Positions 23,067 to 64,000 of a stretch of DNA of 64,000 nucleotides are shown piece by piece (within the stretch, counting starts at the first letter, position 1; every line of letters begins with the position of its first letter). The notes beneath the pieces were generated by a model. That model was given only the letters and a program-made list of their open reading frames with translations. It was not told the DNA's origin and searched no databases. The stretch comes from Nitrospiraceae bacterium. GTDB taxonomy: Bacteria; Nitrospirota; Nitrospiria; Nitrospirales; Nitrospiraceae. The DNA lies in NCBI GenBank assembly GCA_009692155.1, contig SHZW01000009.1, forward strand, positions 12,272 to 76,271, given 5' to 3'. The position numbers were made by a program, and so were the translations under genes.

Positions 23067-24404
<1,338 letters not shown>

Positions 24405-25807: not shown

Positions 25808-25813
25808 GAAATC

Positions 25814-31454: not shown

Positions 31455-31465
31455 GCTTCATCTGG

Positions 31466-32506: not shown

Positions 32507-32514
32507 GAATAGCT

Positions 32515-32616: not shown

Positions 32617-32619
32617 GCC

Positions 32620-40017: not shown

Positions 40018-41340
40018 ATGCGCGCGAAGTTGTCCATACACATGCTGATGGTGAGTGTGGCGGTGACGGCCGGTCTCTGGGGGGCCGGGCTCTCCTGGTC
40101 GGCGACGACCGACGAGAAGGCGAGCATGGCGCAGAAGCCGTCGCCCTCCGCGCTGCGCCTCAGCCAGGACGAGGCCGTCGCGCTGTTTCTCCGCCAGAAC
40201 TTCGACCTGTTGATCTCCAGATTCGGCATCGAGTACGCCAAGGGGCAGCAGATCACGGCGCGGCTGTTCCCCAACCCAGTGTTGTCGGTCGGCACCCAGA
40301 GCTCGTTCACGCAAGTCTGCCAAGGGAGTGTGAGCAAATGCGGCCAGGTCTTCCCGCAGATTCAGCAACTCTTCGAGATGGCCGGCAAGCGCGGCTATCG
40401 CATGGAGAGTGCCAGTTTCGGGGCCCGGTCGGCCGAAGCGAATTTCGAAGATGCGATTCGTCAGCTAAGTTTTACAGTGAAGGATGCCTACTACCGGGTC
40501 CAGCTGGCTCAACGCCGGCTGGCGCTGGCGGAGGAAAACCGGGACCGGTTTTCCCGCATTCTGGAAGTCAACACGATCCGGTTCAAGAAGGGCTACATCG
40601 CCGAGGTGGACCTGATTCGCATCCGCCTGCAGGTCGTGGATTTCCAGTCGCAGATCATCCAGGCGATCCAGGATGGCAATCAAGCCCGGGCGGATCTCCG
40701 CGTGCTGCTGGGTCTCTCTCCGAGTGTAGACGTGATGCTCACGACGCAACTGGACTATCATCTGGTTGAGCCGGACATCGTCGCGCTGCGCCGGCTGGCC
40801 CTCGAGACGCGGCCGGATATCCGGATGAAGCGGTTGATGCAGTCGCAGCGCATGGCCGATCTCCGTCTGGCGAAGGCGTATCGGATTCCGGACATCACGG
40901 CCGGAGCCGGTTACGCGGTGCAGGGGCCGCAAGGTCCCGATAACCAACAACAGGTGGCACTCAGCCTTGGGATTCCGCTCCCGCTGTTTAATCGGAATCA
41001 GGGCGGCATTGCGCAGGCGGAAGTGTCCACTCAGGTGGCGGATGCCGATCTCCAAAAGGCCATCGTGCAAGTTGAAAACGACGTTGAAATAGCCTACCGG
41101 AACATGCTGGAAAGCCGCCGCCTGGTGGAGACCTATCGAGGCGGAGTTCTGGAAGATGCGCGACTGACCCTGACGATCGTCGAGAAGGCCTACGAGCGCG
41201 GCGGGGCCACGATTCTCGACTTGCTCGACGCGGGCCGAACCTCAAGGACCATTCAACAGAATTACATCGAGACGCTTTTCAACTACCAACGCAACTTGTT
41301 TTTGCTCGAAAATGCCGTCGGCCGGGAGATTTCTTCGTGA
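40018..41340 (+). CDS. czcC: TolC-family outer-membrane efflux protein (CzcC-like)
   Basis: 440 aa with a signal peptide and two OEP repeats. It is the first gene of a three-gene RND operon. Confidence 0.8.
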   Translation: MRAKLSIHMLMVSVAVTAGLWGAGLSWSATTDEKASMAQKPSPSALRLSQDEAVALFLRQNFDLLISRFGIEYAKGQQITARLFPNPVLSVGTQSSFTQVCQGSVSKCGQVFPQIQQLFEMAGKRGYRMESASFGARSAEANFEDAIRQLSFTVKDAYYRVQLAQRRLALAEENRDRFSRILEVNTIRFKKGYIAEVDLIRIRLQVVDFQSQIIQAIQDGNQARADLRVLLGLSPSVDVMLTTQLDYHLVEPDIVALRRLALETRPDIRMKRLMQSQRMADLRLAKAYRIPDITAGAGYAVQGPQGPDNQQQVALSLGIPLPLFNRNQGGIAQAEVSTQVADADLQKAIVQVENDVEIAYRNMLESRRLVETYRGGVLEDARLTLTIVEKAYERGGATILDLLDAGRTSRTIQQNYIETLFNYQRNLFLLENAVGREISS

Positions 41341-42563
41341 GGAAGGTTCAGGTTGAGGCTCAGGTTGAGGGTACGCACACACTCGTGGAGGTGTGGTCTC
41401 TGCTGACCTCGGCTTCAGGTTTAACCTTAGCCTTAGCCTTAGCCTTCCCGGGGCTCTCCGCCTGCGACCGGACCGAACAGCCTGCCTCGTCGAATGCCGC
41501 GACACCGAAGGTGCAATCTGCGCCATCCGTGCCGACAGATCTTCAAAGCCGGGTCGACACGATGGTGGTCGAGTATAGCTCGGTCAAGGTGGCCCTGCAG
41601 CTGGCCGGGCGGATCATCTATGGCGAAGACCGGTTTTCTAAAATCTCGTCGCCTCTGCAAGGCCGTGTGGTCGAAGTGCGTGCCAAGCTCGGCGACCATG
41701 TGAAGGCCGGAGACATCCTGCTCGTCATCGACAGTCCGGACATCTCCGCAGCCTATTCTGAATTTGTCAAAGAGGCGTCCGAGATGGAATACGCGACGCG
41801 TGCCTATGAATTGGCCAAGGATCTCTACGAAAACAAGGCTCTTCCGCAGAAGGATCTCAAGCAGGCCGAGAACGATCTCATCAAGGCCAGGGCGGAGTTC
41901 CGTCGCGCCAAGGAGCGGCTGCTGTCGCTGCGCGTGCCGGCGGGCGAGTTGGACAAGCCGCTGGCCGATCAGAAGATCACGTCCCGATTCGACATGAAGA
42001 GCCAGCTGGCCGGCACGGTGGTGGAGCGGAACGTGACACCAGGGCAGTCTGTGAACGGCGACCCCACCCAGGTGCTCTTCATCGTGGCTGATCTGGACAA
42101 GTTGCAGGTCGCGGCGGATCTCTACGAGCGGGATTTGGATCTGGTCAAGGTCGGGCAGGTGGCGGCTGTCACCGTGGAAGCCTATCAAGGCGTATCGTTC
42201 CCCGCAGTCCTCTCTGCCATCGGTGATGTGGTGGATCCCACCACGCGCACCATCAAGGTCAGGGCCATGGTGGACAATGAGACGCATAAACTGAAGCCGG
42301 AAATGTTTGCCCGCTTGAACATTGACGTTGGCGATACCACCCAGTTCATCGCCGTTCCACGTGAAGCCGTGCTGGAAGTAGACGGGAAAGAGTTTGTCTA
42401 TGTGGCGCAAGTCGGCAACCAGTATGTCAAACGGCCTGTCAAAACGGCGACTGCGTCGAACGATCAGGTGCGCATTCTTGAAGGGCTGGTGCCCGGCGAG
42501 CGGGTCGTGACGAAAGGCGCGGTCCTCATCAAAGGGCAGGAAACCAAGGCGCCAGGCGCATGA
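41337..42563 (+). CDS. czcB: RND efflux periplasmic adaptor (CzcB/HlyD-like)
   Basis: The GTG overlaps the czcC stop (GTGA). Lipobox GLSAC is followed by barrel-sandwich hybrid and beta-barrel regions. The N-terminal ~35 codons lie inside repeat element 41341..41448, so the true start is uncertain (an alternative GTG lies near 41385). Confidence 0.8.
   Translation: MRKVQVEAQVEGTHTLVEVWSLLTSASGLTLALALAFPGLSACDRTEQPASSNAATPKVQSAPSVPTDLQSRVDTMVVEYSSVKVALQLAGRIIYGEDRFSKISSPLQGRVVEVRAKLGDHVKAGDILLVIDSPDISAAYSEFVKEASEMEYATRAYELAKDLYENKALPQKDLKQAENDLIKARAEFRRAKERLLSLRVPAGELDKPLADQKITSRFDMKSQLAGTVVERNVTPGQSVNGDPTQVLFIVADLDKLQVAADLYERDLDLVKVGQVAAVTVEAYQGVSFPAVLSAIGDVVDPTTRTIKVRAMVDNETHKLKPEMFARLNIDVGDTTQFIAVPREAVLEVDGKEFVYVAQVGNQYVKRPVKTATASNDQVRILEGLVPGERVVTKGAVLIKGQETKAPGA
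41341..41448. repeat. AGGTTG/AGGCTT-hexamer hairpin element (copy 1)
   Basis: Left arm ggaaggttcaggttgaggctcaggttgaggg. Right arm ttaaccttagccttagccttagccttcc. It starts 1 nt after the czcC stop and overlaps the czcB 5' end. Confidence 0.85.
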
Positions 42564-42606: not shown

Positions 42607-45600
42607 ATGATTCCACGGATTGTTGAATTTGCGCTCGAGCAGCGGTTCTTCGTGTGCGTGCTCGGGTTGATGCTGCTGTTCGGCGGCCTCTACTCCTTTC
42701 ACACACTTGACGTTATTGCCTACCCCGACCCGTCGCCCCCGATGATCGAGGTGATCACCCAGTACCCCGGGTGGTCGGCGGAGGAAATTGAAAGGCAAAT
42801 TTCCATTCCGATCGAGGTGACGCTCACCGGCATGCCCGGGCTGACCGATATCCGTTCGCTCTCTATTTTTGGTCTCAGCGACATCAAGTTCTATTTTGAC
42901 TTCAGCACCAAGTATTTTTTCGACCGCCAGGAGGTGCTGAACCGGCTGGCGATGATCAAGCTGCCGAATAGCGTTCAGCCGGCGCTGTCCCCCTGGTGGG
43001 CGATCGCGGAGATCTATCGCTACGAGCTGACGGGCGACCCGGGCGCGACGCTCACGGATTTGAAAACGCTCCAGGACTGGAAACTGCAGCGCGAATTCAA
43101 GCGCGTGCCGGGCGTCATCGACGTGACGGCGTTCGGAGGCACCACGAAGGAATATCACGTCGAGGTCGATCCCGGCGCCTTGATCAGTTACGGCGTGTCG
43201 CTGCAGCAGGTTCAGGACGCGCTCACGAACAGCAATGCCAATGTCGGCGGCAATTATCTCACGATCGGGTCGCAGAGCCACAACGTCCGTGGCCTGGGGT
43301 TGATCGAGAATCTCCGCGACATTGAAAATATCATGGTCGCGGAGAAAAACGGGACGCCGGTGTTTATCCGGAGTCTCGGCAAGGTCAATGTCGGCTCCCG
43401 TATCCGGTTGGGTAAGGTCGGCATCGACGACAGGGACGACGTGGTCGAAGGCGTCGTGCTGTTGCAGCGGGGGTACAAGGCGCTGCCGGTGCTGGATCGA
43501 GTGCGGCAGAAGGTCGAGGAACTGAATGCCTGGAAGCTGCCGGAAGGCGTCAAGGTCAAGACCTTCTATGACCGGACGGTCCTCATCTACACCACCATTG
43601 AGACAGTGCTGGACATTTTGATCAGCGGCATCGTGCTGGTCTTCATCATCCTGTACGTGTTTCTCGGGCATTTCCGGGCGTCCGTCATCGTCGCGTTGAC
43701 GGTGCCGATGGCCCTGTTGCTCACCTTCAGCATGATGGTGCTGGTCGGGGAGTCGGCGAACCTGATCTCGCTGGGCGCGGTCGATTTCGGTATCATCGTG
43801 GACTCCACGCTGATCATGGTGGAAAGCATCTTCTATCACTTGGCCAGCCGGAAAGGGCCCGGGCTGACGGTGCCGCAGCACATCATGCGCGCGGCGCGCG
43901 AAGTGGGGCGGCCGATTTTCTTTGCCACTACGATTATCGTCGTGGCATTCATCCCACTCTTTACGATGACCGGCGTGCCGGGAAAGATTTTCGCCCCGAT
44001 GTCGGTGACCTACGGTTTCGCGCTCACGGGCGCGTTGCTGATGGCTTTTACCCTGGCACCGGCGCTCTGTTCGCTGCTGTTGACCGGCGCGGTACGGGAA
44101 AAAGACACCTGGGTCGTGTCCGGCTTGCGCAAGACCTATTTGAAGGTGCTGAAATGGGCATTGACGCATGACGTGCTCGTGGTCGGGATGGCCGTGGGAT
44201 TGTTTGTTGCGATGCTGGCGGTGACACCGTTCCTGGGCGGCGAGTTCATGCCGGCGCTGGAAGAGGGTAATCTCTGGGTCCGCGCGACGATGCCGGTGGA
44301 TATTTCGTTCGAGCAGGCGGATCGTCTGGCCGGGGAAATCCGCGGTATTTTCCGGCAGTATCCGGAGGTGACGCACGCCGTGTCCCAACTCGGTCGGCCT
44401 GACGATGGCACGGATCCCACCAGCTTTTTCAACGCGGAATTTTTGGTGAATCTGAAGCCGAAGAAGGAATGGCGGGAGGATATCAAGACCAAACACCAGT
44501 TGATCGAGGAGATTGAAGAGCGCCTGGCCAAGATTCCAGGCGTCATGTTCAATTTTTCGCAGGTCATCCAGGACAACGTGCAGGAGGCGATGTCGGGCGT
44601 CAAAGGTGAAAATTCAGTCAAGCTGTTCGGCTCAGATTTGAAAGTGCTGGAACAGAAAGCGGTCGAGATCGAGGCGGTGATGAAACAGGTTCAGGGCGTG
44701 AAAGACCTGGGTATTTTCCGTCTCATCGGCCAGCCGAATCTATTGATCCGGGTGGATCGCGACGCCTGCGCACGCTACGGGCTGCTCGTCGGAGACGTGA
44801 ACGCGGTCGTGCAGGCGGCGATCGGCGGGCAGGCCGTGACGCAGGTCTTCGAAGGCGAACGGCGATTTGATCTGGTCGTGCGATTTCTTCCGGAGTTCCG
44901 GCGCGATGTGGAGACGATCGGCAACATCCAGGTCAACACGCCGGACGGCGCCCGGATTCCCATCAAGCAGTTGGCGAATATTTCGACGCAAACCGGCGCG
45001 TTCATCATTTATCGTGAAAATAACGAGCGGTATATCCCGATCAAATTCAGCGTGCGCGGGCGGGACCTCGAGAGCACGGTGCGGGAGGTGCAGGCGCGTC
45101 TCGCCAGGGAGGTCAAACTGCCGGAACGGTATCGCATGGAATGGCATGGGGAGTTCAATCAACTGCAGGAGGAGAAAAAACGTCTGGCCCAGATCGTGCC
45201 GCTCAGCCTGTTGTTCGTGCTGTTTCTTGTCTATATCGCGGTGAAGTCGTTCCGCGATGCGGTGCTGGTGCTGGCCACCGTGCCCTTCGCGTTGATCGGC
45301 GGTGTCTTCTCGCTGTTGCTGACGCACACGGAGTTCAGCATTTCGGCGGCAGTGGGATTCATCTCGCTCTTTGGCGTGGCGATTCAGGGCGGGCTCATTT
45401 TGATCGTGCGCATTCAGGATCTGGTCGAAGAGGGCCATGATTTGAAAGAGGCGATCCTGACGAGCGCCGAAACGCGGATGCGGCCGGTGCTCATGACGAC
45501 GCTGGCCGCCGCGATCGGGCTGTTGCCCGCGGCCGTGGCGACGGGAATCGGTGCGCAGTCCCAGCAGCCGTTGGCCCGCGTCGTCGTCGGCGGCATGCTC

Positions 45601-45693
45601 ACGTCCGCTGTGCTGATCCTGCTCGTGTTGCCGGTCCTTTATCAGCTGGTCCATCGTGCCGAAGTACAAAAACGGATGCAGGAGGAGGCGTAA
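42607..45693 (+). CDS. czcA: heavy-metal-efflux (HME) RND inner-membrane pump, CzcA/CusA family
   Basis: 1028 aa with 12-TM RND topology. The TM4 motif VDFGIIVDSTLIMVES resembles the HME signature DFGxxxDGAxxxVEN. Confidence 0.9.
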   Translation: MIPRIVEFALEQRFFVCVLGLMLLFGGLYSFHTLDVIAYPDPSPPMIEVITQYPGWSAEEIERQISIPIEVTLTGMPGLTDIRSLSIFGLSDIKFYFDFSTKYFFDRQEVLNRLAMIKLPNSVQPALSPWWAIAEIYRYELTGDPGATLTDLKTLQDWKLQREFKRVPGVIDVTAFGGTTKEYHVEVDPGALISYGVSLQQVQDALTNSNANVGGNYLTIGSQSHNVRGLGLIENLRDIENIMVAEKNGTPVFIRSLGKVNVGSRIRLGKVGIDDRDDVVEGVVLLQRGYKALPVLDRVRQKVEELNAWKLPEGVKVKTFYDRTVLIYTTIETVLDILISGIVLVFIILYVFLGHFRASVIVALTVPMALLLTFSMMVLVGESANLISLGAVDFGIIVDSTLIMVESIFYHLASRKGPGLTVPQHIMRAAREVGRPIFFATTIIVVAFIPLFTMTGVPGKIFAPMSVTYGFALTGALLMAFTLAPALCSLLLTGAVREKDTWVVSGLRKTYLKVLKWALTHDVLVVGMAVGLFVAMLAVTPFLGGEFMPALEEGNLWVRATMPVDISFEQADRLAGEIRGIFRQYPEVTHAVSQLGRPDDGTDPTSFFNAEFLVNLKPKKEWREDIKTKHQLIEEIEERLAKIPGVMFNFSQVIQDNVQEAMSGVKGENSVKLFGSDLKVLEQKAVEIEAVMKQVQGVKDLGIFRLIGQPNLLIRVDRDACARYGLLVGDVNAVVQAAIGGQAVTQVFEGERRFDLVVRFLPEFRRDVETIGNIQVNTPDGARIPIKQLANISTQTGAFIIYRENNERYIPIKFSVRGRDLESTVREVQARLAREVKLPERYRMEWHGEFNQLQEEKKRLAQIVPLSLLFVLFLVYIAVKSFRDAVLVLATVPFALIGGVFSLLLTHTEFSISAAVGFISLFGVAIQGGLILIVRIQDLVEEGHDLKEAILTSAETRMRPVLMTTLAAAIGLLPAAVATGIGAQSQQPLARVVVGGMLTSAVLILLVLPVLYQLVHRAEVQKRMQEEA

Positions 45694-46536
45694 ATGCGTA
45701 GGCAAGGCCTTTCACGCGTGATGGTCCTGGCAGTCTGGTGCGTAGCCGGCGGCCTGTCCGTCTGTCTTGCCGTACCGTCTGTTGAGGCACGCGGTGAGGC
45801 CTCTGTCCTACCGGTTCAAGCTCCCGACAGCGGGCAGATTCCCTATGGGTACGAGATGCCGCCTCCTTCGCAGGAGGCGCCGGACACTTCCATTCCGCCA
45901 TTGAACAAGCCGCTCGGGCCGGAGGAACTCAAGCGGGCAGAAGCGCTGCTGCCAATGCTGGAAGGCAAGCAGGAATTGTGGGCCATGGGAGAGTTCGTCC
46001 ACCTGGGCAAGCCGGCCGTGCCGGTGTTGACCAAGGCGTTGACGATGTCTAGCCCCAGGATCCGGTACAATGCGATCGAGACGCTGCTGATAATCAAGGA
46101 TCCGAGTGCCGTCCCGGCGTTGATTTCCGTGGCGAAAGATCCTCAAGAGATGCCGCGTATCCGCGAGCACGCTCTACGGGTGGCCGTCCGGCTGGATCCG
46201 GCGCTGACGCCGCCTGCGATCGAGGCCATGGCGAAGGACCAGGAGCCGGCGATCCGAAAGGTCTCGGCATTCGAGGCGCGGTATGTGCGCCAGAAGGCCG
46301 TTGTGCCGGCGCTGATCGGTTTGATGGCGGACGAGGAGCGGTTTGTGGCGCTTACGGCCATCCAATCCCTCTGGATTCTGACCCGCCACGAGAGCGAGAT
46401 GCACGACTGGGATATCTCCACCCGGCAGGATCGGAAGGAGTGGTCCAAGGAGTGGATCGACTGGTGGGCGACAAACCGGGAGACGTTTCAATTGCCCGAA
46501 CCGCGTCAGCCCCGCAAGCCGCTGCCAAAGGACTGA
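45694..46536 (+). CDS. secreted HEAT-repeat protein
   Basis: Signal peptide, then repeated PAVPVLTKAL..RIRYNAIETL / PSAVPALISVA..RIREHAL / PPAIEAMA..AIRKVSA / VPALIGLM HEAT-like units. The ATG immediately follows the czcA TAA. Confidence 0.65.
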   Translation: MRRQGLSRVMVLAVWCVAGGLSVCLAVPSVEARGEASVLPVQAPDSGQIPYGYEMPPPSQEAPDTSIPPLNKPLGPEELKRAEALLPMLEGKQELWAMGEFVHLGKPAVPVLTKALTMSSPRIRYNAIETLLIIKDPSAVPALISVAKDPQEMPRIREHALRVAVRLDPALTPPAIEAMAKDQEPAIRKVSAFEARYVRQKAVVPALIGLMADEERFVALTAIQSLWILTRHESEMHDWDISTRQDRKEWSKEWIDWWATNRETFQLPEPRQPRKPLPKD

Positions 46537-46600
46537 GTGCTGAGTATAAAGTGCTGAGTCCTGAGCAAAGGAATCCGGGCTCAGCTCTCAGGACTCAGGA
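46533..46600. repeat. CTGAGTN-heptamer hairpin element
   Basis: Left arm ctgagtgctgagtataaagtgctgagtcctgagc. Right arm gctcagctctcaggactcagga. It starts at the stop codon of the HEAT-repeat gene. Confidence 0.85.
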
Positions 46601-46659
46601 TTTGTGCACAGCGCTGGCGTTGCGAGCCCGGCGAGGGCTGTGTTATAAAACGAACCGGA

Positions 46660-47190
46660 ATGGCGCTCTTACCCATCGCAAAACTCGGCAATCCGATGCT
46701 GCGGCAGATTGCCGCGCCGGTCAATCGGGACGACATCTCGAGTCCGTCGTTCCAGCAGTTTATCGACGACATGTTTCATACGATGGTCGAAACGCACGGG
46801 ATCGGATTGGCTGCACCACAGGTATCCCAGTCGCAGCAGGTCATCGTCATGGAGTGTGCTGGCGAGGAGGGGTTCCCGAAGACCGTCCTGATCAATCCTG
46901 AGATCGTGTTCTACGGTCCGCATCAGGTGGACAATTGGGAAGGCTGCCTCAGCGTGGACGGGCTTCGAGGCAAGGTGACCAGACCGTCCATGGTTCGCGT
47001 TCGCGGATTGGACCGCCATGGGAAACCGCTAGACATCGAAGCCACCGGTCTGTATGCCGTGTGCATTCAGCACGAGATGGATCACCTCATCGGCAAGGTG
47101 TTTTTGGATCGCATGACCGATATGTCCACGTTGGCCCAGTTGGATGAGTTTGAGCGCTTTTGGAAAGAAGAACATGCGGCTGTCATCTAG
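46660..47190 (+). CDS. def: peptide deformylase
   Basis: GIGLAAPQ, EGCLS and HEMDH motifs. Confidence 0.95.
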   Translation: MALLPIAKLGNPMLRQIAAPVNRDDISSPSFQQFIDDMFHTMVETHGIGLAAPQVSQSQQVIVMECAGEEGFPKTVLINPEIVFYGPHQVDNWEGCLSVDGLRGKVTRPSMVRVRGLDRHGKPLDIEATGLYAVCIQHEMDHLIGKVFLDRMTDMSTLAQLDEFERFWKEEHAAVI

Positions 47191-47211
47191 CAGGCCGCAT
47201 AGCACGCACCC

Positions 47212-48936
47212 GTGAAGGCTCTTCTCCGCGTCCTTCACTACCTCCGGCCCTACCGTCTTCTTGCCTGTGCGACGTTGGCGAGTGCCATCGCGGCGACGGC
47301 CTTGGATCTCGTGCCGCCGTGGCTGATCAAAATCGTCATTGACGACGTCATCCAGGCCCACCGGCCCGAGTTGCTGGGATGGGCCGTGGCCGGCTTGATC
47401 GGCGCCTATGCGTTGAAAAACGTCTTTATCTCCCTGCGCATCCGCCTGAATAACACCCTCGAGCAGCGCGTGGTGTGCGATCTCCGCAATCAGGTCTTTG
47501 CGGCGTTGCAGCGCCTCTCGATCAGTTATTTTGAGAATCGTTCATCCGGCGAGATCATGTCGCGTGTTACAAACGACACCGAACACATGGAGCGCATTTT
47601 CGTGGACGGGCTGGAAGGCATGCTGACGGCTTCCCTGACGCTGGCCGGCATCACGGTCATGCTGTTTGTCCTGAACTGGAAACTGGCGCTGTTGTCGCTG
47701 ATTCCCATCCCGGTGCTGGTCCTGTCGGCGACGGCGTTCACCGGACGAGTCCATCGGTACTACCACGACATCCGCCGTCATGCCGCCGAACTCAACGCGT
47801 ATTTGCACGACGCGCTTTCCGGTATCCGCGAAACGATGGGATTCAACCGGCAGGCCTACGAACAGGCACGGTTCGATGCCCGGAGTCGCCGATACAGCGA
47901 CAGCAACCTTGATGCCATGCGCCTGTGGTCTTTCTACTCGCCCGGCATGATGTTCGTCGGCAGTATTGGAACGGTATTGATCTTGTGGTATGGAACCGGC
48001 GAGGTGACACGAGGGGTGCTGACGATCGGCGAACTGGTGATGTTCCTCTCGTATCTGGCGCTGTTCTACGTGCCCGTGAATCAAATCCATTCGGTGAACC
48101 ATATGCTTCAGCACGCGCTGGCAGGCAGTGAACGGGTGTTTGAGATTCTCGATGCCCGCTCAGAGGTGCAGGACCGGCCCGGTGCCGCTGCGCCGGCCGG
48201 GCGGTTGGGCGGCGCGGTACGGTTCGACGGGATCTCCTTTGCCTATAGGCCCGACGTGCCGGTTCTGCAAAGTCTGACGCTGGTCGTCAGGCCGGGCGAG
48301 CGCATCGCGTTGGTCGGCCCCAGCGGGGCCGGCAAGAGCACGTTGCTCAAGTTGCTGATGCGTTTGTATGACGTGCAGAGCGGGGCGATTCTTCTCGACC
48401 GGTACGACCTTCGCGATTTGTCCCTGGCGTTTCTTCGCAGCCAGATCGGCTTCGTACAGCAGGAGCCGTTCCTGTTCAATGGAACCGTCAAGGAGAACAT
48501 TGCCTACGGAGATCTCGATGCCGATCAGGCCGGGATCGAAGATGCGGCTCGCGCGGCGCGTGCCCACGAATTCATCGATGAATTGCCGGACGGCTATGAT
48601 ACCTGGATCGGCGAGCGGGGCGTGAAGCTGTCGGTCGGGCAGAAGCAGCGGGTGTCCATCGCGCGCGTGCTGTTGAAAAATCCTCCGCTGGTCGTCTTCG
48701 ACGAAGCCACGTCGAATATCGACACCGAGACCGAGGTCAAGATCCGCGAAGCGCTCGACAATCTGACCAGGGGCCGCACCACTTTTATTATTGCGCATCG
48801 CCTGTCCACTCTGCGCAATGTGGACCGGATCGTCGTGATGGACCGCGGTAGGATTGTCGAGCAGGGAGTCCACCAGGAATTGCTGGTCCGGGGCGGGCTC
48901 TACGCCGGCCTCTATGAAGCTCAATTCCAGGACTGA
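47212..48936 (+). CDS. ABC exporter, fused permease/ATPase (MsbA-like)
   Basis: Six-TM N-domain, Walker A GPSGAGKST, signature LSVGQKQRVSIARV and Walker B VVFDEATS. GTG start. Confidence 0.9.
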   Translation: MKALLRVLHYLRPYRLLACATLASAIAATALDLVPPWLIKIVIDDVIQAHRPELLGWAVAGLIGAYALKNVFISLRIRLNNTLEQRVVCDLRNQVFAALQRLSISYFENRSSGEIMSRVTNDTEHMERIFVDGLEGMLTASLTLAGITVMLFVLNWKLALLSLIPIPVLVLSATAFTGRVHRYYHDIRRHAAELNAYLHDALSGIRETMGFNRQAYEQARFDARSRRYSDSNLDAMRLWSFYSPGMMFVGSIGTVLILWYGTGEVTRGVLTIGELVMFLSYLALFYVPVNQIHSVNHMLQHALAGSERVFEILDARSEVQDRPGAAAPAGRLGGAVRFDGISFAYRPDVPVLQSLTLVVRPGERIALVGPSGAGKSTLLKLLMRLYDVQSGAILLDRYDLRDLSLAFLRSQIGFVQQEPFLFNGTVKENIAYGDLDADQAGIEDAARAARAHEFIDELPDGYDTWIGERGVKLSVGQKQRVSIARVLLKNPPLVVFDEATSNIDTETEVKIREALDNLTRGRTTFIIAHRLSTLRNVDRIVVMDRGRIVEQGVHQELLVRGGLYAGLYEAQFQD

Positions 48937-48996
48937 TGTGATTGTCTGCAGGGGTGGAGCGCGGCTATACTAAAGCCGTCGGCCGGAGAATACGGG

Positions 48997-49191
48997 ATGG
49001 TCCTGGTCTTTCAAAGCGATCCGCTGGATACCGATGAGGCTCGCGGGCATTTCTATCATGTCTGCCTGGGACGGATGCAGGAGGCGGAGATGCCGGTGCC
49101 GCCGCCGGATCAGCCGTATGAATGTCCCCGCTGTGGCGTTGAATTGGAGACCGAAGATTTCTGGATCGCCCAGGTGAAAGGATCGGTCTAA
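48997..49191 (+). CDS. small hypothetical protein with CPxCG knuckle
   Basis: 64 aa with HVC...CPRCG. Coding status is uncertain. Confidence 0.3.
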   Translation: MVLVFQSDPLDTDEARGHFYHVCLGRMQEAEMPVPPPDQPYECPRCGVELETEDFWIAQVKGSV

Positions 49192-49194
49192 GCC

Positions 49195-49413
49195 ATGAGT
49201 ACGACGCAGGGGAGTTCCGGACGGAAAATGGTGTCGGTGATGCGGGGCCTGATGATGCTCTGCAATTCCTGCCATGACCTGGTCATTCACGATAAACTGG
49301 TGAACGAGAAGAACTATGTCGCCGACCACGAAGCCCTGTTCGATACGATCTGCCCGGGATGCACGGATATAAACCGGCCGTTGATCGACGATATGCTTGG
49401 AAGTTCAGAGTAG
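49195..49413 (+). CDS. small hypothetical CxxC...CxxC (zinc-ribbon-like) protein
   Basis: 72 aa with CNSC...CPGC. It starts 4 nt after the previous small ORF. Coding status is uncertain. Confidence 0.3.
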   Translation: MSTTQGSSGRKMVSVMRGLMMLCNSCHDLVIHDKLVNEKNYVADHEALFDTICPGCTDINRPLIDDMLGSSE

Positions 49414-49433
49414 TCTGCTGGTTTCCTCATCTT

Positions 49434-49790
49434 TTACTTGCATGTTTTCCCATCAAAGATTTTGCATGCCGACTCGCCGGCTGCGATCTTCCATCGTTTC
49501 ACCAGCGGGGCATTGCCCGGACGAATTTCAACAACGATGTCGATCAGGCCTGAGGAGGGCAGCTTGTCCAAGTGGGGTCTGGCTTCAGGCGGAACCTCGA
49601 CCCCGAACACGGCGCCGCTGTCCGAGATCATGATGAAGCCTTTCTCCCTGTCCACGAAGATAATCGGGCTGTAATAGCTTTTTTCTTCGGCGCCGGCAGG
49701 CCCGGCCCAGCCCAATCCAATCAATGCTGCCAGGAATATCACGGAAGAGGTCAGTGAAAGACGTCTGCGCATGGCCGAAGTCCTCCGCAT
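49434..49790 (-). CDS. small secreted hypothetical protein
   Basis: From ATG 49790: MRRTSAMRRRLSLTSSVIFLAALIGLGWAGPAGA, a signal peptide. The longer ORF-track start would overlap the JAMM gene. Confidence 0.4.
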   Translation of the reverse strand: MRRTSAMRRRLSLTSSVIFLAALIGLGWAGPAGAEEKSYYSPIIFVDREKGFIMISDSGAVFGVEVPPEARPHLDKLPSSGLIDIVVEIRPGNAPLVKRWKIAAGESACKIFDGKTCK

Positions 49791-49867
49791 GCGAAAAATT
49801 GCGCGTATTATGGCATCGGGCATACGCGTGCGCCAGCACATTTTACTGGAACGGCCGCGCGTGTCGT

Positions 49868-50350
49868 TCAGGTCGGCTGGAACTCGGCTCGAGCAACCTG
49901 ACGATCCTTGATCCAATAGGCCCGCAGGTCCGGTGTCGTCTTATGTTCCAGGGAAATGATGAGATAGGCCGCGTCTGGATAGTAGGCGAGCCCCACGTCT
50001 GTGGTGGAGGGATAGGCGGGCGAATGGGTGTGGGAATGGTAGATCACGGCTAACTCAAGATTCCGCTGGCGCATGTCCTTGAAGGCCGCCAGCATCTCTT
50101 TGGGGTCCATGAAGTAGGCGACTTCGGCCCTGGTGGAATCCGGCAGGTGTCCGAGCTGCTTGACGTCGGCGCCGTCGAAGACCTCCATAGCCCTGGCGTC
50201 TTTTGCCACGGTGTTCGTGATCCGGTAATGGCGCGAGACTGCGCCGTTCGTGCCGGCCAGCAACCCGCAGCATTCGAACGGGTCCAGTTCACGCGCGTGA
50301 GCGATCATGTCGTCCAGAATCTGCCGGGGGATTTTGAGAGAAGGCGTCAT
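49868..50350 (-). CDS. JAMM/MPN+ metallopeptidase (Mec+/HcyD-like sulfur-carrier C-terminal peptidase)
   Basis: The ECCG element and HSHTHSPAYPSTTD give the JAMM motif E...HxHx7Sx2D. Confidence 0.85.
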   Translation of the reverse strand: MTPSLKIPRQILDDMIAHARELDPFECCGLLAGTNGAVSRHYRITNTVAKDARAMEVFDGADVKQLGHLPDSTRAEVAYFMDPKEMLAAFKDMRQRNLELAVIYHSHTHSPAYPSTTDVGLAYYPDAAYLIISLEHKTTPDLRAYWIKDRQVARAEFQPT

Positions 50351-50353
50351 TTT

Positions 50354-50521
50354 GTCCGAAAGTCGTCAAGTCTGAAAGTCATAAAGTCTTGGCTTAGTCA
50401 TCAAGTTCTAAGGTCGTAAAGTCTTCAGGTCGACTTGACGTTATGACTTTACAGACTTTCTGACTTGATAGACATGCCTTCTCGGTAGACTTTACGACTT
50501 GATGACTTTGGACTTTCAGAC
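50354..50521. repeat. AAGTC-octamer hairpin element (copy 4, longest)
   Basis: gtccgaaagtcgtcaagtctgaaagtcataaagtc...gtaaagtcttcaggtc | gacttgacgttatgactttacagactttctgacttgat...gactttacgacttgatgactttggactttcagac. The centre is at gtcgac (about 50430). Confidence 0.9.
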
Positions 50522-50530
50522 CGGGCTGCA

Positions 50531-51334
50531 TCAAATCGCGCAGGAGACGGCGTAGTCGCCGCTGAGATTTTTAATGGTTGGATGCGGGCCGCAGAGGCGG
50601 CAGTTGGGATCCTTGGGCCGGGAGACTTTTCTGAATTTCATGTCCAGCGCATCATAAATCAGGAGCTTATCCGCCAGCGTATCGCCGACTTTGAGAATTT
50701 CCTTGATCGCCTCCGCTGCTTGCAGCACGCCGATGGTGCCGGCCAGCACGCCCAGCACGCCGGCTTCCTGGCAGTTGGGCACGAGCCCGGCCGGAGGCGG
50801 CTCGGGGTAGAGGCACCGGTAGCAGGGGAACCCCTCGTGCGGCTTGATCGTTGCCAGCTGGCCTTCAAACCGAAAGATGCTGCCTGAGATCAGTGTCTTC
50901 TTCGCAAAGAAGCAGGCATCGTTGATCAGGAACCGCGTCGAAAAATTGTCCGATCCGTCAACAATGATGTCGTAGTCATGGAACAACCGCATGATGTTCT
51001 CGGCCGACACGTTCTCCTGGTAGGTTTTGACCGTGATGTCCGGATTCAAGGCCGCGAGCGTCTGCCGGCCCGACTCGACCTTGGGAACGCCGATGCGGTC
51101 TGTCGTGTGCAAAATCTGACGCTGCAGGTTGGAGAGATCCACCACGTCGCCGTCGACCAGTCCAAGCGTGCCGACTCCCGCCGCCGCCAGGTACAGTGCG
51201 GCCGGCGATCCCAGTCCACCGGCGCCGATAATCAGCACCTTGGCCTGGGACAGCTTTTTTTGTCCCTTGCCGCCGACTTCGTTCAGGATAATGTGGCGGC
51301 TGTACCGTTCCAGTTGCGCTTCGGTAAATTCCAT
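50531..51334 (-). CDS. ThiF/MoeB-family E1-like adenylyltransferase, copy 1 (no rhodanese domain)
   Basis: RYSRHIIL, GAGGLGSPAALYLAAAGVG, DLSNLQRQ and Zn motifs CYRC...CRLC. Confidence 0.9.
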   Translation of the reverse strand: MEFTEAQLERYSRHIILNEVGGKGQKKLSQAKVLIIGAGGLGSPAALYLAAAGVGTLGLVDGDVVDLSNLQRQILHTTDRIGVPKVESGRQTLAALNPDITVKTYQENVSAENIMRLFHDYDIIVDGSDNFSTRFLINDACFFAKKTLISGSIFRFEGQLATIKPHEGFPCYRCLYPEPPPAGLVPNCQEAGVLGVLAGTIGVLQAAEAIKEILKVGDTLADKLLIYDALDMKFRKVSRPKDPNCRLCGPHPTIKNLSGDYAVSCAI

Positions 51335-51350
51335 GGCTTCGCTCAGATTA

Positions 51351-51421
51351 GAGGTTATAGGCTATGGGTAATGGGCGAAGAAAGCACCTATAGCCCATCA
51401 CCTCGCGCCTATTGCCTATTC
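51351..51421. repeat. ATAGGCT/ATGGG-heptamer hairpin element (copy 2)
   Basis: Left arm gaggttataggctatgggtaatgggcg. Right arm cacctatagcccatcacctcgcgcctattgcctattc. It lies between the NIL gene stop and the ThiF copy 1 start. Confidence 0.8.
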
Positions 51422-51655
51422 AATAACGTTTAGCTCGATGGGGTCGACCGTGACCCCTTTCTTCTTCATGCCTTCGATGGCCCGCTCGATTTCGGCCGTC
51501 TCGCCGCTCAGTTCCAGATCTATCCAGCCGGTGGTTTCCCGTACATCGGCCCGGCGGATGTTGGTCACCACCTTATATTCATGGCCGATCTGGTACACGA
51601 TCGGCTCCTTGATTTTCTGTTCAGGGAATCGGATATGGAAACGCATATTCGGCAT
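51416..51655 (-). CDS. stand-alone NIL-domain protein
   Basis: 79 aa from ATG 51655: [62 protein letters not shown] resembles the NIL (MetN C-terminal) domain. Its ATG overlaps the stop of the carrier gene (ATGA). Confidence 0.65.
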   Translation of the reverse strand: MPNMRFHIRFPEQKIKEPIVYQIGHEYKVVTNIRRADVRETTGWIDLELSGETAEIERAIEGMKKKGVTVDPIELNVIE

Positions 51656-51930
51656 CAGTTGCCCCCTGCAATGGCCGGTACGATTGAAACTTCGTCGCCA
51701 TCCTTGAGCGACGTGTCCTTGCCGTTCAAAAACCGGATGTCTTCCTCGTTGACGTAGATATTCACGAAGCGGCGCAACTCGCCCTTGTCGTCGCACAGCC
51801 GGTCTTTCAGGCCGGGATGGGCGGAGTTCAGGGTCTCGATCATCTCGGAGATGTTTGCCGCCGTGGCTTCCACTTCGCCCTGGCCTTTGGTCAGGGGCCG
51901 CAGGGGAGTGGGAATTCGAACCTTAATCAC
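51655..51930 (-). CDS. CysO/MoaD-family sulfur-carrier protein ending ...AIAGGN
   Basis: 91 aa. IPTPLRPLT...[14 protein letters not shown]...[14 protein letters not shown] closely parallels M. tuberculosis CysO. One extra residue (N) follows Gly-Gly; I verified the codons ggc ggg aac tga on the minus strand. The GTG start overlaps the thrC stop. Confidence 0.85.
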
Positions 51931-53186
51931 GCGTTGCCTCCACCGTTCTTGCCGATCTTGAAGGTTCTCTCGAAATTGACCAGGCTCGGTTGAATGCGGA
52001 ACGGCCGGCCGACCGCGTCAATCACCGCTTCCTGCGTTTTGAGCCCGTTGCCGGTGATGTAGGCCACCGTGACGTCGCTTTTCTTGATGACGCCCTGCTT
52101 GACCAGCTTCTGGAGCACGCCGATCGTCACGCCGCCGGCGGTTTCGGCGAAGATGCCTTCCGTCTGAGCCAGCAGCTTGATGCCGTCCACCACTTCCTCG
52201 TCGGACACCATGTCCATCGCACCCTTGCTTTCGCCGGTGGCTTTCAGCGCGTAGTAGCCGTCTGCCGGATTGCCGATGGCCAGCGACTTCGCGATGGTCT
52301 TGGGCTTGACCGGCTTGAAGAAGTCGCGGCCTTCTTTATAGGCGGTCGCGATTGGCGAGCAGCCATCTGCCTGTGCACCGTTAATTTTCGTCTGGACCTT
52401 GTCGATCAGGCCCAGCGCTTTCATTTCGTTCAAGCCTTTCCAGATTTTTGTCAGCAGCGAGCCCGAGGCCATCGGAATCACCGCCTGATCCGGTGCGCGC
52501 CAGCCGAGTTGCTCGACAGTTTCGAAGGCCAGGGTCTTGGAGCCTTCGGCGTAGTAGGGCCGGATGTTGATGTTGACGAACGCCCAGCCGTGTTCGCCGG
52601 CGATCTCGCTGCACAGGCGATTCACGTCGTCATAATTGCCTTCCACCTCGATGACGTTCGGCTTGTAAATCAGGTTGCCCAGGACTTTCGCCGCTTCCAG
52701 ATCGGCCGGGATGAACACGTAGCACTTCATGCCGGCCGCGGCCGCGTGAGCCGCCACGGAGTTGGCCAGATTGCCGGTCGAGGCGCAGGCGACGGTTTCG
52801 AATCCCAGCTCGCGCGCGCGGGTCAGCGCCACCGAGACGACCCGGTCCTTGAATGAGAGCGTCGGGTGGTTGACCGTATCGTTCTTGATGTACAGCTCGT
52901 CGAGGCCCAGGTAGGCGCCGAGATTCTTGGTTCGCACCATCGGCGTGAGGCCGGCATGCGGCCCGATCACGGAATCGATCGACGCGGTTTCGACGGGCAG
53001 CAGATCCATGTACCGCCACATGCTCCGCGGGCCATCCTCGATTTTCTTGCGCGAGAGGTTCTTCTTGATTTCGTCATAGTTGTACTTGACCTCCAGCGGG
53101 CCGAAGCACAGTTCGCAGACGTGGATCGCCTTGGTCGGGTATTCCTTCCCGCATTCCCGACAGACCAGCGATTTCATCTTGGTCAT
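51927..53186 (-). CDS. thrC: threonine-synthase-family PLP enzyme with N-terminal zinc ribbon
   Basis: CRECGKEY...CELC ribbon, PLP lysine motif TLSFKDR and a fold-type II body. The thrC symbol denotes the family; its role here may differ (see findings). Confidence 0.85.
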
Positions 53187-53201
53187 GACGTCACCACTCC
53201 A

Positions 53202-53263
53202 GAAGGTTGAGGTTAAGGCTTAGGTTAAGTTTCCTTCTCAGCCTAAGCCTCAACCTTAACCTG
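53202..53263. repeat. AGGTTG/AGGCTT-hexamer hairpin element (copy 2)
   Basis: Core stem AGGTTAAGGCTTAGG (53210-53224) pairs with CCTAAGCCTCAACCT (53242-53256), giving 14/15 Watson-Crick pairs on the plus strand. It lies between the thrC start and the ThiF copy 2 stop. Confidence 0.9.
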
Positions 53264-54064
53264 CTTCAGCTCGCAGGCTTCCTGCTCGTAATCGATCAGC
53301 TTCGTGATGGTCGGGTGTTCGCCGCACAGGGGGCAGTGCGGATTGCGCTTCGTTTTGATTTCACGGAACGACGCTTTCTTGGCGTCGTAGTCCAGCAGCC
53401 GGTCGGTCAGCAGCCGGCCGATGCCGAGCACGATCTTCAGCGCTTCGGTCGCTTGCAGGGTTCCGATGACGCCGGCCAGCGCGCCGATCACGCCGGCTTC
53501 CTGACAGCTCGCGACCAGCCCGGCCGGCGGCGGCTGTTTGAACACGCACCGGTAGCAGGCTGATTTCTTCGGAAGGATCGTGGTCACCCGGCCGTCAAAA
53601 CGGAGGATGCCGCCGTGCACCAGCGGCTTGTCGGCAAAGACGCAGGCGTCGTTGATCAGGAACTTGGTGGGAAAATTGTCCACACCGTCGATCACAACGT
53701 CGTAGCCGGAGACGAGCTTCAAGGCATTGCCGGCCACAAAGCGCTCTTCGTGCAGCACGACCTGAACATCCGGATTGAGCGCCTGAATTTTTTCCTTGGC
53801 CGACAGAACCTTGGACCGGCCCACGTCCGGGGTGTAGTGGATGATTTGCCGCTGCAGATTGGACAGGTCCACCGCATCGCTGTCGATCAAACCGATCGTG
53901 CCGACGCCCGCCGCGGCCAGATAGAATGCAGCGGGGGAGCCGAGACCGCCGGCGCCGACGATGAGGATCTTCGCCCTGGCGATTTTCTTCTGTCCCTTGC
54001 CGCCCACCTCCGGCAATAGAATGTGACGGCTGTAGCGGGTAACCTGTTCGTCTGTGAATTCCAT
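53243..54064 (-). CDS. ThiF/MoeB-family E1-like adenylyltransferase, copy 2 (no rhodanese domain)
   Basis: RYSRHILL, GAGGLGSPAAFYLAAAGVG and CYRC...CPLC. It is a paralogue of copy 1. Start ATG 54064 (MEFTDEQ). The last residues KQVKVEA are encoded by a repeat. Confidence 0.9.
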   Translation of the reverse strand: MEFTDEQVTRYSRHILLPEVGGKGQKKIARAKILIVGAGGLGSPAAFYLAAAGVGTIGLIDSDAVDLSNLQRQIIHYTPDVGRSKVLSAKEKIQALNPDVQVVLHEERFVAGNALKLVSGYDVVIDGVDNFPTKFLINDACVFADKPLVHGGILRFDGRVTTILPKKSACYRCVFKQPPPAGLVASCQEAGVIGALAGVIGTLQATEALKIVLGIGRLLTDRLLDYDAKKASFREIKTKRNPHCPLCGEHPTITKLIDYEQEACELKQVKVEA

Positions 54065-54069
54065 GTCAG

Positions 54070-54161
54070 CAAGTCCGAAAGTCGTCAAGTCCGAAAGTCG
54101 TCAAGTCCGAAAGTCTTGAGATGAACGACTTGAAGACTTTACGACTTTTTGACTTTTGGAC
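54070..54161. repeat. AAGTC-octamer hairpin element (copy 5)
   Basis: Left arm holds three consecutive copies of the 16-mer caagtccgaaagtcgt (the third incomplete: caagtccgaaagtc). Right arm is gacttgaagactttacgactttttgacttttggac. It lies between the cysK stop and the ThiF copy 2 start. Confidence 0.9.
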
Positions 54162-54169
54162 CATTGGTT

Positions 54170-55099
54170 TCAGATATTGAAATATTTCTCGATGCTGATA
54201 TAGCGCTCGCCTGTGTCGCAGAGAATCGTCACGATGTTCTTGCCTGGGCCGAGTTCCTTCGCCACCTTCTGAGAGGCAAACACGTTGGCGCCGGCGGAGA
54301 TGCCCACCAGGAGCCCTTCCTTCTTGGCCAGCAGCTTGGCCGTCTGATACGCCTCGTCGTCCGTCACGGTGATCACACCGTCCAGAATCGTCCGGTTCAA
54401 TACTTTTGGCACGAACCCCGCGCCGATGCCCTGAATCTTGTGCGGGCCCGGGTCTCCGCCGGACAGAACCGGCGAGCCGGCCGGCTCCACGGCAATCACC
54501 CTGATTTTAGGGTTGCGCTCTTTAAACACTTCGCCGCAGCCGGTGATCGTGCCGCCGGTGCCGACGGCCGCCACGAACGCATCAATCTTGCCGTCCATTG
54601 CTTCCCAAATCTCCAGCGCCGTAGTTTTCTTGTGCATCGCGGGGTTGGCCGGATTGGAAAACTGGTCCGGCATGAAATACGACGGATTCTGCGCCACGAT
54701 GCTCTCCGCTTCCTTGATCGAGCCCTTCATGCCTTCCCATGCCGGCGTCAGCACAAGCTGCGCGCCGTAGGAGGACAGCAGACTGGCCCGCTCCATGCTC
54801 ATGCTCTCCGGCATGACGAGGATCAATTTATAGCCGCGTACGGCTGAGACCAATGCCAGGCCGATGCCGGTGTTGCCGCTGGTCGGTTCAACGATCGTCC
54901 CGCCCGGCTTCAGCTTGCCCTGCCGCTCCGCCTCGTTGATCATGCTGAGGCAGATCCGGTCCTTGACGCTCCCGCCAGGATTGAAAAACTCGACCTTCCC
55001 GTAGATGGTACCCGCGCCCTCAGGGGAGAGCCGGTTCAGGCGAACCAGCGGGGTCCGGCCGATCAGTTCCGTGATGTCCTTATGCGCTGAAACCGTCAC
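54170..55099 (-). CDS. cysK: cysteine synthase (CysK-type O-acetylserine sulfhydrylase family)
   Basis: PLVRLNRL, PLP lysine GGSVKDR, TSGNTG and GPHKIQGIGAGFVP. The GTG start overlaps the stop of the ThiS-like gene (GTGA). Confidence 0.92.
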   Translation of the reverse strand: MTVSAHKDITELIGRTPLVRLNRLSPEGAGTIYGKVEFFNPGGSVKDRICLSMINEAERQGKLKPGGTIVEPTSGNTGIGLALVSAVRGYKLILVMPESMSMERASLLSSYGAQLVLTPAWEGMKGSIKEAESIVAQNPSYFMPDQFSNPANPAMHKKTTALEIWEAMDGKIDAFVAAVGTGGTITGCGEVFKERNPKIRVIAVEPAGSPVLSGGDPGPHKIQGIGAGFVPKVLNRTILDGVITVTDDEAYQTAKLLAKKEGLLVGISAGANVFASQKVAKELGPGKNIVTILCDTGERYISIEKYFNI

Positions 55100-62979: not shown

Positions 62980-63106
62980 CGGGTGGGCTCGCCGCTCGCT
63001 CCCTCAACGTCCTGTCGTAAGGGCGCCTCGGGCTCTCGCGGCTCCACGCACCCGTCTCGTCACGCGACTGCGTGATTTCGCGACGAACCGTCATGAAGAA
63101 AGCGGG

Positions 63107-63796: not shown

Positions 63797-63816
63797 CTGT
63801 TTATACTACCGCTCCT

Positions 63817-64000
63817 ATGCGACAGTGGCTGAACAGTTTCCTGGGGCTCAATCTTCTTTTTATCTTCATTCCGGTCGCGCTGGTCCTGGAGTTTCTCCAC
63901 GCCGATCCCACGGCGATCTTTCTCACCTCAGCCCTGGCCATTATCCCATTAGCCGGGCTGATGGGCAAAGCGACCGAACATCTCACCAGCCACGTCGGGG
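63817..64000 (+). CDS. Ca2+/H+ antiporter (CAX/ChaA family), N-terminal part; continues past the window
   Basis: Own translation from ATG 63817: [61 protein letters not shown]. IIPLAGxxGxATExL is the CAX alpha-repeat signature. Confidence 0.75.

Follow-up and report, generated by a model that had tools for sequence, protein, structure and literature searches.

What occupies the gaps between neighbouring genes in a 64,000-nucleotide (nt) stretch of a Nitrospiraceae genome (contig SHZW01000009.1 of assembly GCA_009692155.1; the whole stretch is called the window below), and by what route did it get there? An earlier reading of the letters, the original prediction, had singled out five intergenic elements in which tandem NNNAAGTC units are followed by GACTTNNN units and had taken them for a repeat family that acts in RNA or arises by slippage. 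We find that these hairpins are additions to junctions whose length is otherwise -4 to 16 nt, that they are present or absent in a junction from one close relative to the next, a pattern that the original prediction missed, and that the AAGTC family is one of a class of tandem-oligomer hairpins built from 6-9-nt units with many different cores.

Inverted AAGTC arrays between stop and start codons

A pentamer census of the 64-kb window returned five clusters of three or more AAGTC/GACTT and no more (18192-18268, 25733-25799, 32518-32610, 50360-50515 and 54071-54155). In each cluster AAGTC runs lead and GACTT runs trail at a spacing of mostly 8 nt, and the arms consist of tandem NNNAAGTC units and then tandem complement units GACTTNNN. 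The pattern AAGTCN3AAGTCN3AAGTC matches the window 14 times against 0.00 matches expected from 100 dinucleotide-preserving shuffles, which bears out the five elements where they had been placed. Folding each copy on both strands, a check proposed together with the elements, gives long, interrupted and imperfect hairpins for all five on either strand (z = -2.7 to -7.4), with AT-rich stems interrupted every 5 bp. Among 91 family members, opposed spacer triplets are complementary at 38%, compared with 36 +/- 1.6% for shuffled pairings, and complementarity in the best register (0.57 versus 0.53) is no better than chance. Since the spacer triplets pair at chance level, the predicted description of a conserved pentamer with variable 3-nt spacers, forming 5-bp helices separated by internal loops, holds.

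The elements fill their spacers entirely, starting 3-9 nt past the upstream stop codon and ending 0-8 nt short of the downstream ATG. No T-run follows any of the five copies in transcript orientation, in agreement with the earlier statement that they lack a U-tract and are not classical terminators, and a terminator scan of 44001-64000 flagged neither AAGTC copy in that range. The outer ends, claimed to be alike, show only a tendency in that direction: GTCCGAAAGTC is found in three of the five copies, and the outermost units are NGA-rich family-wide.

Filled and empty junctions in relatives

Orthologous loci were retrieved by protein-guided search; L-numbers are labels of loci from public genomes and metagenomes. 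Empty alleles were found for four of the junctions. The cysK–ThiF junction reads TGAccATG in L246 and TGAtcATG in L247, ThiF–JAB measures 5-13 nt in L246, L247 and L249, glmS–gatC reads TAGcgATG in L252, where GlmS is 97% identical, and era–mgtE reads TGAatATG in L252 and TGAagcATG in L251. No array of the varied-spacer type found in the window (N-type, defined below) is present in 77 kb of L246-L249. The ThiF–JAB junction is filled in the more distant L153, L181 and L216 (ThiF 77-81% identical) and glmS–gatC is filled by orthologous elements in L253 (GlmS 91%) and L238 (78%), in both cases with recognisably homologous flanks; era–mgtE carries an orthologous copy in L253 and a different hairpin family in L250. 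Across 14 syntenic junctions from DUF502 to GBBH, compared between the window and four relatives with GlmS 91-97% identical, nearly all spacers are either at most 16 nt or ~85-100 nt long, and the longer ones occupy 6, 7, 3, 1 and 5 of the 14 junctions in the five genomes.

Three further spacers in these operons deserve mention in their own right. In contig TqcQVhHG of ENA sample ERZ1305449, which encodes an identical GatC, the 102-nt hairpin spacer of glmS–gatC is replaced by ~2.2 kb with three small open reading frames (ORFs). The gatB–eno spacer of the window (22708-23117, 410 nt) holds a small ORF at 22704-23066 where four relatives have a 4-nt gatB/eno overlap; this insertion is of a different kind from the array hairpins. 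The spacer past the JAB gene, 86-95 nt long (49773-49867 in the window, ~10475-10580 in L246-L249), is kept in all five genomes and shares TGCTGGC...GATGCCATAAT, with a promoter-like look and no array hairpin.

The family in other genomes

We made two scans, one for four in-phase AAGTC units in genomes with a single representative of each species, the other for the hairpin form in metagenomes. At least 147 hairpin arrays were parsed from both scans: at least 92 N-type copies (G+C of at least 0.52 and varied spacers; five in the window plus at least 87 from the scans), at least 44 low-GC arrays and at least 11 of acidobacterial type. Among the genome-scan matches listed, varied-spacer hairpin arrays occur only in Nitrospira and Nitrospiraceae records, and uniform-spacer arrays in Thermoanaerobaculia, Acidobacteriota, Gemmataceae, other Planctomycetota, Mucilaginibacter and Chitinophagaceae. 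The JAB and GatC homologues are named Nitrospirota, Nitrospiraceae or Nitrospira and include Candidatus Nitrospira bockiana (Ca. N. bockiana) and Nitrospira sp. Kam-Ns4a. N-type arrays have a median length of 91 nt (5th-95th percentile, 73-142 nt) and a limited spacer vocabulary (CGA, ATC, ATA, GTA, TGA, GTC, TTA, TTC and few others) in which the third base is A or C. With at least 92 such copies, and with orthologues that differ by 8-nt units, the elements do form the discrete, length-variable repeat family that had been proposed.

The AAGTC-period-8 hairpins of other phyla have near-uniform spacers (CGG/CGA/GGA or TCA/GCA) and lie mostly past gene ends. They were seen in the low-G+C loci L052, L012, L138, L144 and L146, in L088 and L038 of Planctomycetota, and in L081, L096, L111, L148 and L194 of Acidobacteriota/Thermoanaerobaculia, under a search pattern that itself required the AAGTC pentamer.

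The position of the family relative to genes, which the original prediction had proposed to tabulate in relatives, was determined with coding frames from a codon model for which the long ORFs in the examined loci served as training set. Copies abut stop and start codons family-wide. Of 51 N-type contexts, 37 are co-directional, 9 convergent and 5 divergent, the five divergent calls being low-scoring and at least two of them looking like miscalls. Stop-to-element distances fall between -8 and +13 nt on 60 of 73 gene-end sides, the distance from the element to the next start is mostly -7 to +17 nt with a mode of +3, and ~40% of the family occupies tightly packed co-directional junctions too short for a new promoter. 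Most copies are 75-100 nt long, nested ones being longer, and start at most ~10 nt from a stop codon; in co-directional pairs the element usually ends within ~10 nt of the next start codon. Where the gap between element and start is short, it holds no Shine-Dalgarno (SD) sequence. An SD displaced to a position upstream of the stem was considered and rejected, as it is found in few copies only and about half of all ordinary genes here do without an SD anyway.

Unit slippage and concerted change

We found 15 orthologous groups of elements, in whose alignments whole units are gained or lost in lengths of 8, 16-17 or 60 nt; the predicted variability of unit number is therefore seen between orthologues, which differ in 8-nt steps. 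In orthologous pairs, identity is 56% in loops, 72% in spacer triplets and 73% in the 40-nt flanks, and an exact core in one orthologue is matched at ~97% of aligned bases in the other, a value inflated by the requirement for exact cores in detection. Core pairs are invariant in these alignments and spacer pairs break freely. The orthologous glmS–gatC hairpins of L251 and L250 differ by a replacement of C-G by U-A that recurs at one and the same unit position in four 9-nt units in a row, so that 4 of 22 predicted pairs are compensated, an indication that one change spread through both arrays with pairing kept. The elements evolve by unit slippage and concerted change, with core pairing maintained and spacer triplets unpaired.

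The same copies in independent assemblies

Over 20.5 kb the window is 99.97% identical to SHZX01000007.1 of GCA_009692035.1, and that metagenome-assembled genome and three Logan assemblies carry the glmS–gatC and ThiF–JAB elements without a single base difference. The suggested comparison of unit counts between strains gave no length variation among these four assemblies. Together with the copies found elsewhere, this identity in independent assemblies speaks against elements that are confined to the window or made by assembly.

Short-read contigs often terminate inside hairpins. Two Logan contigs end inside the 50354 element, L124 and L125 break off within a hairpin at position 1 and L130, L171, L176, L198 and L241 at their contig ends, and many gatC-bearing contigs are only ~1 kb long. 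It seems that the elements are a cause of assembly breaks between genes.

A larger class with other cores

On reading, nearly every ~85-100-nt spacer in the compared operons proved to consist of two inverted arrays of 6-9-nt units, and several were also found by a fold-based scan or folded singly. The cores vary by junction and by genome (AAGTC, GGGCTATAGG/ATGGGC, GCGAATAG, CGTGATGG, GACAAGC, GTCT and GTTT in 9-mers, GTGAAAN, AGGYTN, GAGGTTCG and CTGAGNN), and several recur at unrelated loci. In the window, about nine junction hairpins exist beyond the five AAGTC copies, none of them in the original prediction, and six have z-scores of -2.8 to -5.5 (see the table); several of their cores are met again in other loci of Nitrospira type. 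So many different cores argue against a reader specific to AAGTC and suggest that what constrains all of these arrays is the formation of a hairpin together with array dynamics.

Relatives differ at these junctions as well: gatA–DUF948 has an 11-16-nt spacer with an SD sequence in relatives, and N. bockiana and Kam-Ns4a, both with complete genomes, have other hairpin families at NIL–ThiF.

Array hairpins of the window, with AAGTC elements listed first
Feature	Position in window	Content	z
glmS–gatC hairpin	18186-18280	4 left units, 3-nt loop, 6-7 partly decayed right units	
era–mgtE hairpin	25729-25811	ends 2 nt short of mgtE ATG	
Helicase-ORF junction hairpin	32515-32616	both flanking genes on minus strand	
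ThiF–Prok-JAB compound hairpin	50354-50521	flanking genes on minus strand	
Outer arm of compound element	50354-50388	plus strand reads GTCCGAAAGTCGTCAAGTCTGAAAGTCATAAAGTC; near-identical to the arm in L001 and L178	
Inner 77-nt hairpin in loop of outer element	50397-50473	detected inverted repeat, same family	
Second outer arm of compound element	50488-50521	reads GACTTTACGACTTGATGACTTTGGACTTTCAGAC	
cysK(PALP)–ThiF hairpin	54065-54161	flanking genes on minus strand	
holB–metG junction hairpin	12120-12205	GAGGTTCG/CGAACCYC units	-3.1
DUF502–glmU spacer, 71 nt	14724-14800	inverted repeat, AAATGAAA units; 4-nt gene overlap in all four relatives	
Hairpin inside 3' end of glmU ORF	16222-16308	CGAGGTT and ACCCCGTACCTCGC arrays	
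gatA–DUF948 hairpin	20428-20528	GTGAAAN heptamers, array from gatA stop codon	-4.1
divIC–era hairpin	24728-24832	GGCAATAGG/CTATAGCCC-type array	-4.0
OEP–RND-adaptor hairpin	41330-41456	AGGYTN hexamer array	-4.2
HEAT-repeat gene–def hairpin	46521-46612	CTGAGNN heptamer array	
NIL–ThiF hairpin	51340-51425	GGGCTATAGG-type array; 4-nt gene overlap in L246 and L247	-2.8
ThiF–PALP hairpin	53201-53265	AGGYTN hexamer array	-5.5

The flanking genes named for the AAGTC copies are supported by Pfam at glmS–gatC, era–mgtE, ThiF–Prok-JAB and PALP(cysK)–ThiF; the two helicase halves stand in permuted order. The glmS–gatC element starts 4 nt past the glmS TGA and ends 3 nt short of the gatC ATG, the ThiF–Prok-JAB element starts 9 nt past the ThiF stop and ends 3 nt short of the JAB ATG, and the cysK–ThiF element starts 8 nt past the cysK stop and reaches the ThiF ATG (54062-54064). 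The arm at 54070-54115, described earlier as consecutive 16-mers, is indeed CAAGTCCGAAAGTCGT in 2.9 copies at 100% identity by Tandem Repeats Finder. At the helicase junction, the stop of the Helicase_C+DSHCT ORF is at 32620-32622 and the start of the DEAD ORF at 32506.

What had been described as one element at 50354-50521 requires correction, being a compound in which a 77-nt hairpin is nested in the loop of an outer one. At the position of the inner hairpin, the orthologues L001 and L178 have a loop of only 22-23 nt. The simple orthologues at ThiF–JAB (L001, L178, L153, L181 and L216) are 87-100 nt long.

Several observations stand beside these features. The Ski2/HelY-like helicase consists of two minus-strand ORFs (31466-34476) in the order Helicase_C + DSHCT (618 aa), AAGTC hairpin and DEAD (346 aa), with a glgC-like gene further upstream. 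Array hairpins at the glmU 3' end are also found in L251 (7948-8023) and L253 (7986-8040), and GlmU is 490 aa long in the array-free L252 and 507-517 aa in the other genomes; the glmU arrays seem to be read as C-terminal extensions. The left arm of the divIC–era hairpin enters the last divIC codons, the divIC 3' end at 24741-24763 being made of array units. At cysK–ThiF of N. bockiana (L248, 6343-6405) there are CAGCC/AGCTGNN 7-mer runs whose fold is not significant (z = -0.8). Octamer arrays of NNTACCCC/GGGGTANN occur at L237 5270-5371, L136 652-693 and 1882-1928, and L233 7620-7670, forming a hairpin in one case and single arms in the others, with a G-rich strand that fits a G-quadruplex motif.

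Two candidates were dropped from the class. The CGTGAGG array at 3151-3180 (4.3 copies, past a gene end) is a direct array without an inverted partner and without a significant fold (z = +1.4), and 31370-31470 does not fold (z = -0.5). The 46-nt and 63-nt spacers in the corresponding operon of N. bockiana also have folds that are not significant.

Origin and role of the elements

We favor, with moderate confidence, the explanation that the elements are a dispersed, lineage-restricted palindrome family of Nitrospirota, similar to REP/REPIN, which is co-transcribed with its neighbors and tolerated since folding restores the proximity of stop and start codons. Copies would have been dispersed between junctions by some copy mechanism, and are REP/REPIN-like in that sense, and the transcripts of flanking genes presumably run through them. 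The interrupted stem could then fold aside, so that the stop codon and the start codon after it would again lie close to each other, in which case translational coupling of the termination-reinitiation or unfolding type would survive a 90-nt insertion. Such coupling needs a short stop-start distance and RNA unfolding (PMC12548453). REPs at most 15 nt past a stop codon stall ribosomes (PMC12306157), and by analogy with these REPs of E. coli a stem less than 15 nt past a stop probably dampens translation of the upstream gene or slows 3'-to-5' decay.

A number of results weigh against dispersal by a known route. No target-site duplication is consistent across filled and empty alleles at seven junctions, with a possible ATGG repeat at one site; the termini appear not to be conserved beyond the unit consensus; and no transposase is found among the Pfam calls for the ~40 kb of the window that were annotated. 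Near-identical paralogues are likewise missing: non-orthologous pairs have a median identity of 67%, near the shared-core baseline, and the maximum of 87% gives no sign of a recent burst of copying. Recent transposition is thus unsupported. Other results count against a strand-specific role in RNA: stability does not differ between sense and antisense (mean sense-minus-antisense folding energy -1.8 kcal/mol, p = 0.11), the unit vocabulary shows no orientation bias with respect to transcription (chi-square p = 0.88), and no sense-specific ORF bridges the element, an open frame being present in 10 of 24 cases in sense and 13 of 24 in antisense (the 54065-54161 element is one with a bridging open frame). 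A start without SD beside an element is not special in a genome where about half of ordinary genes are without one. Moreover, the same AAGTC core is kept at many loci in several lineages, which is not explained by pairing constraint alone. A bolder version of dispersal, which we rate as unlikely, would see in the elements previously unrecognized intragenomic replicators with many core families that occupy up to half of operon junctions, are mobilized by a structure-reading enzyme, and are tolerated, or exploited, since a ribosome that terminates at one foot of the folded stem could move directly to the start at the other foot; such passage across a folded stem would be a bacterial counterpart of ribosome shunting.

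Among the alternatives to a tolerated repeat family, an adaptive RNA element is possible but less likely: an intercistronic signal (RNase site, 3'-exonuclease barrier or attenuator) selected to set cistron ratios would agree with orthologous junctions that stay filled across deep divergence (GlmS 78-91%, ThiF 77-93% identity), with conserved arms, randomized loops and compensatory changes, and with the same junctions carrying different hairpin families in different genomes. It fits poorly with an occupancy of 1-7 of 14 junctions among genomes whose proteins are 91-97% identical, where close relatives do well with 2-nt junctions, with the lack of strand asymmetry and polarity, and with spacer triplets free of structural selection. 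We also consider it unlikely that the arrays are purely local in origin, arising from a chance repeat near a stop codon by replication slippage and intrastrand template switching and never moving between loci. Arrays do extend into divIC and glmU at their 3' ends, cores change in place by concerted evolution (GTCT to GTTT), target duplications and identical paralogues are lacking, and relatives read TGAGGTGGAGG at the gatA stop codon where the GTGAAAN array begins; local birth could explain some arrays such as this one, but not the AAGTC core with its limited spacer vocabulary (CGA, ATA, ATC, GTC, GTA, TGA) shared by five loci and dozens of unrelated ones. Other cores are multi-locus too, one copy is nested in a loop, and empty sites such as TGAccATG offer no seed.

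The remaining explanations have less to recommend them. It is improbable that the arrays serve a sequence-specific factor that recognizes AAGTC/GACTT units spaced 8 nt apart in DNA or RNA, with the hairpin secondary: the pentamer is far better conserved than spacers and loops (the ~97% match, for which detection required exact cores) and the same pentamer period recurs in arrays of Bacteroidota and Acidobacteriota, though the search pattern required it, but at least 10 other cores (GGGCTATAGG, GTGAAAN, AGGYTN, GCGAATAG, CGTGATGG, GACAAGC, GTCT and others) give the same architecture, size and junctions, and cores can switch in concert with their pairing partners. More improbable still is a role as intrinsic terminators without U-tract, possibly bidirectional. 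In its favor, elements always lie just past a gene end, 9 of 51 between convergent genes, and the window has no excess of canonical terminator-like sites (26 versus 19.8 +/- 4.2 expected); yet 37 of 51 copies sit in tight co-directional junctions whose next start is mostly within 17 nt of the stem, too short for a promoter, no copy has a T-run behind it, and the flanking pairs overlap or are tightly coupled in relatives. Finally, the chance that collapsed or chimeric repeats produced the elements in assembly is negligible. The contigs that end inside the 50354 element and the many gatC contigs of ~1 kb agree with an artefact, but assemblies made from different samples at NCBI, ENA/JGI and Logan share these sequences, diverged orthologous copies occur in many independent metagenomes, and complete Nitrospira genomes have sister families.

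If the explanation by a tolerated, dispersed family is true, a sizeable share of operon junctions in an ecologically important nitrifier lineage holds ~90-nt structured insertions that close relatives lack: there are ~15 hairpin junctions in the 64 kb of the window, and among relatives the share ranges from almost none to as much as half of the junctions. The same gene pair with, without or with a different hairpin would be a natural experiment on translational coupling, mRNA decay and operon stoichiometry. The modular arms, with their conserved core, free spacer, unit slippage and compensatory changes in parallel, offer an unusually clear case of concerted evolution with compensation in a bacterial repeat. 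In practical terms, short-read assemblies are broken at these junctions, and the 3' ends of called ORFs can be extended or remodelled. The finding at the level of the class is of more interest than the five AAGTC copies alone.

Comparison with known repeat systems

The original prediction had recognized no named family in the elements, and searches agree. The window gives no Rfam 15 hits at gathering score, 50300-54230 gives only noise at E<10, and in twelve loci that carry low-GC or acidobacterial types all hits are tRNAs. The searchable literature (Nitrospira repeats, STRR, octanucleotide repeats, unit strings) holds no description of them, the one string match being a polymerase chain reaction primer. 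The architecture matches no description in Rfam 15 or in the searchable literature, and the closest known elements are REP/REPIN.

Like Rho-independent terminators, the elements are stem-loops directly past a gene, but they have an AT-rich stem interrupted every 5 bp, no U-tract, and usually a start codon next. With MITEs and Correia/NEMIS they share the form of small hairpin-forming, non-autonomous insertions, which for the known ones are co-transcribed with neighboring genes. They differ from these in having no target-site duplication and no identical copies; as to terminal repeats of the MITE type, some copies have GTCCGAAAGTC...GACTTTCGGAC, and the NGA-enriched outermost units vary.

STRR are direct tandem heptamer arrays in the non-coding DNA of heterocystous cyanobacteria, with several families per genome, whereas the elements described here, in Nitrospirota, have octamer units in two inverted arrays that pair with each other and take up the space from stop to start codon. 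MIRU, the mycobacterial interspersed repetitive units reported by Supply and colleagues in 1997, are said to be intercistronic repeats in operons with variable unit number and to have been discussed for translational coupling. MIRUs are direct tandem repeats of 46-101 bp with small ORFs that overlap the stop and start codons of their neighbors. Our elements resemble them in their operon-junction location and variable unit number, and differ in having 8-nt units in inverted arrays that form a hairpin, with open frames as common in antisense as in sense.

REP, BIME and REPIN elements, with their RAYT transposases, belong to Enterobacteria and Pseudomonas. A REP is an imperfect palindrome of ~20-40 nt whose foot has a conserved, GTAG-like 5' tetranucleotide, and the cognate RAYT, a Y1 HUH transposase, is encoded by a single-copy gene with its REPs on either side. 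The elements come in several families per genome and show long vertical inheritance (PMC3116915, PMC3337134). The GTAG-type conserved foot of REPs is replaced here by feet of GTCNNNAAGTC-type units that vary between copies, and the arms are 6-9-nt tandem arrays in which the core is conserved and the spacers stay unpaired. Identity between paralogues is ~67%, unlike the near-identical population round a master copy that is seen for REPINs, and no RAYT transposase of the REP kind appears in the Pfam annotation that covers ~40 kb of the window, no whole-genome search having been made. The distance to the gene also differs from E. coli REPs, with ~82% of gene-end sides at most 15 nt from the stop codon compared with the 11-52% reported (PMC12306157). 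What the elements share with REP/BIME/REPIN is that they are extragenic imperfect palindromes forming ~90-nt hairpins that are present or absent between relatives, and, with REPs in particular, that they are located past gene ends and inside operons in high copy number, with five in 64 kb and at least 87 from the scans.

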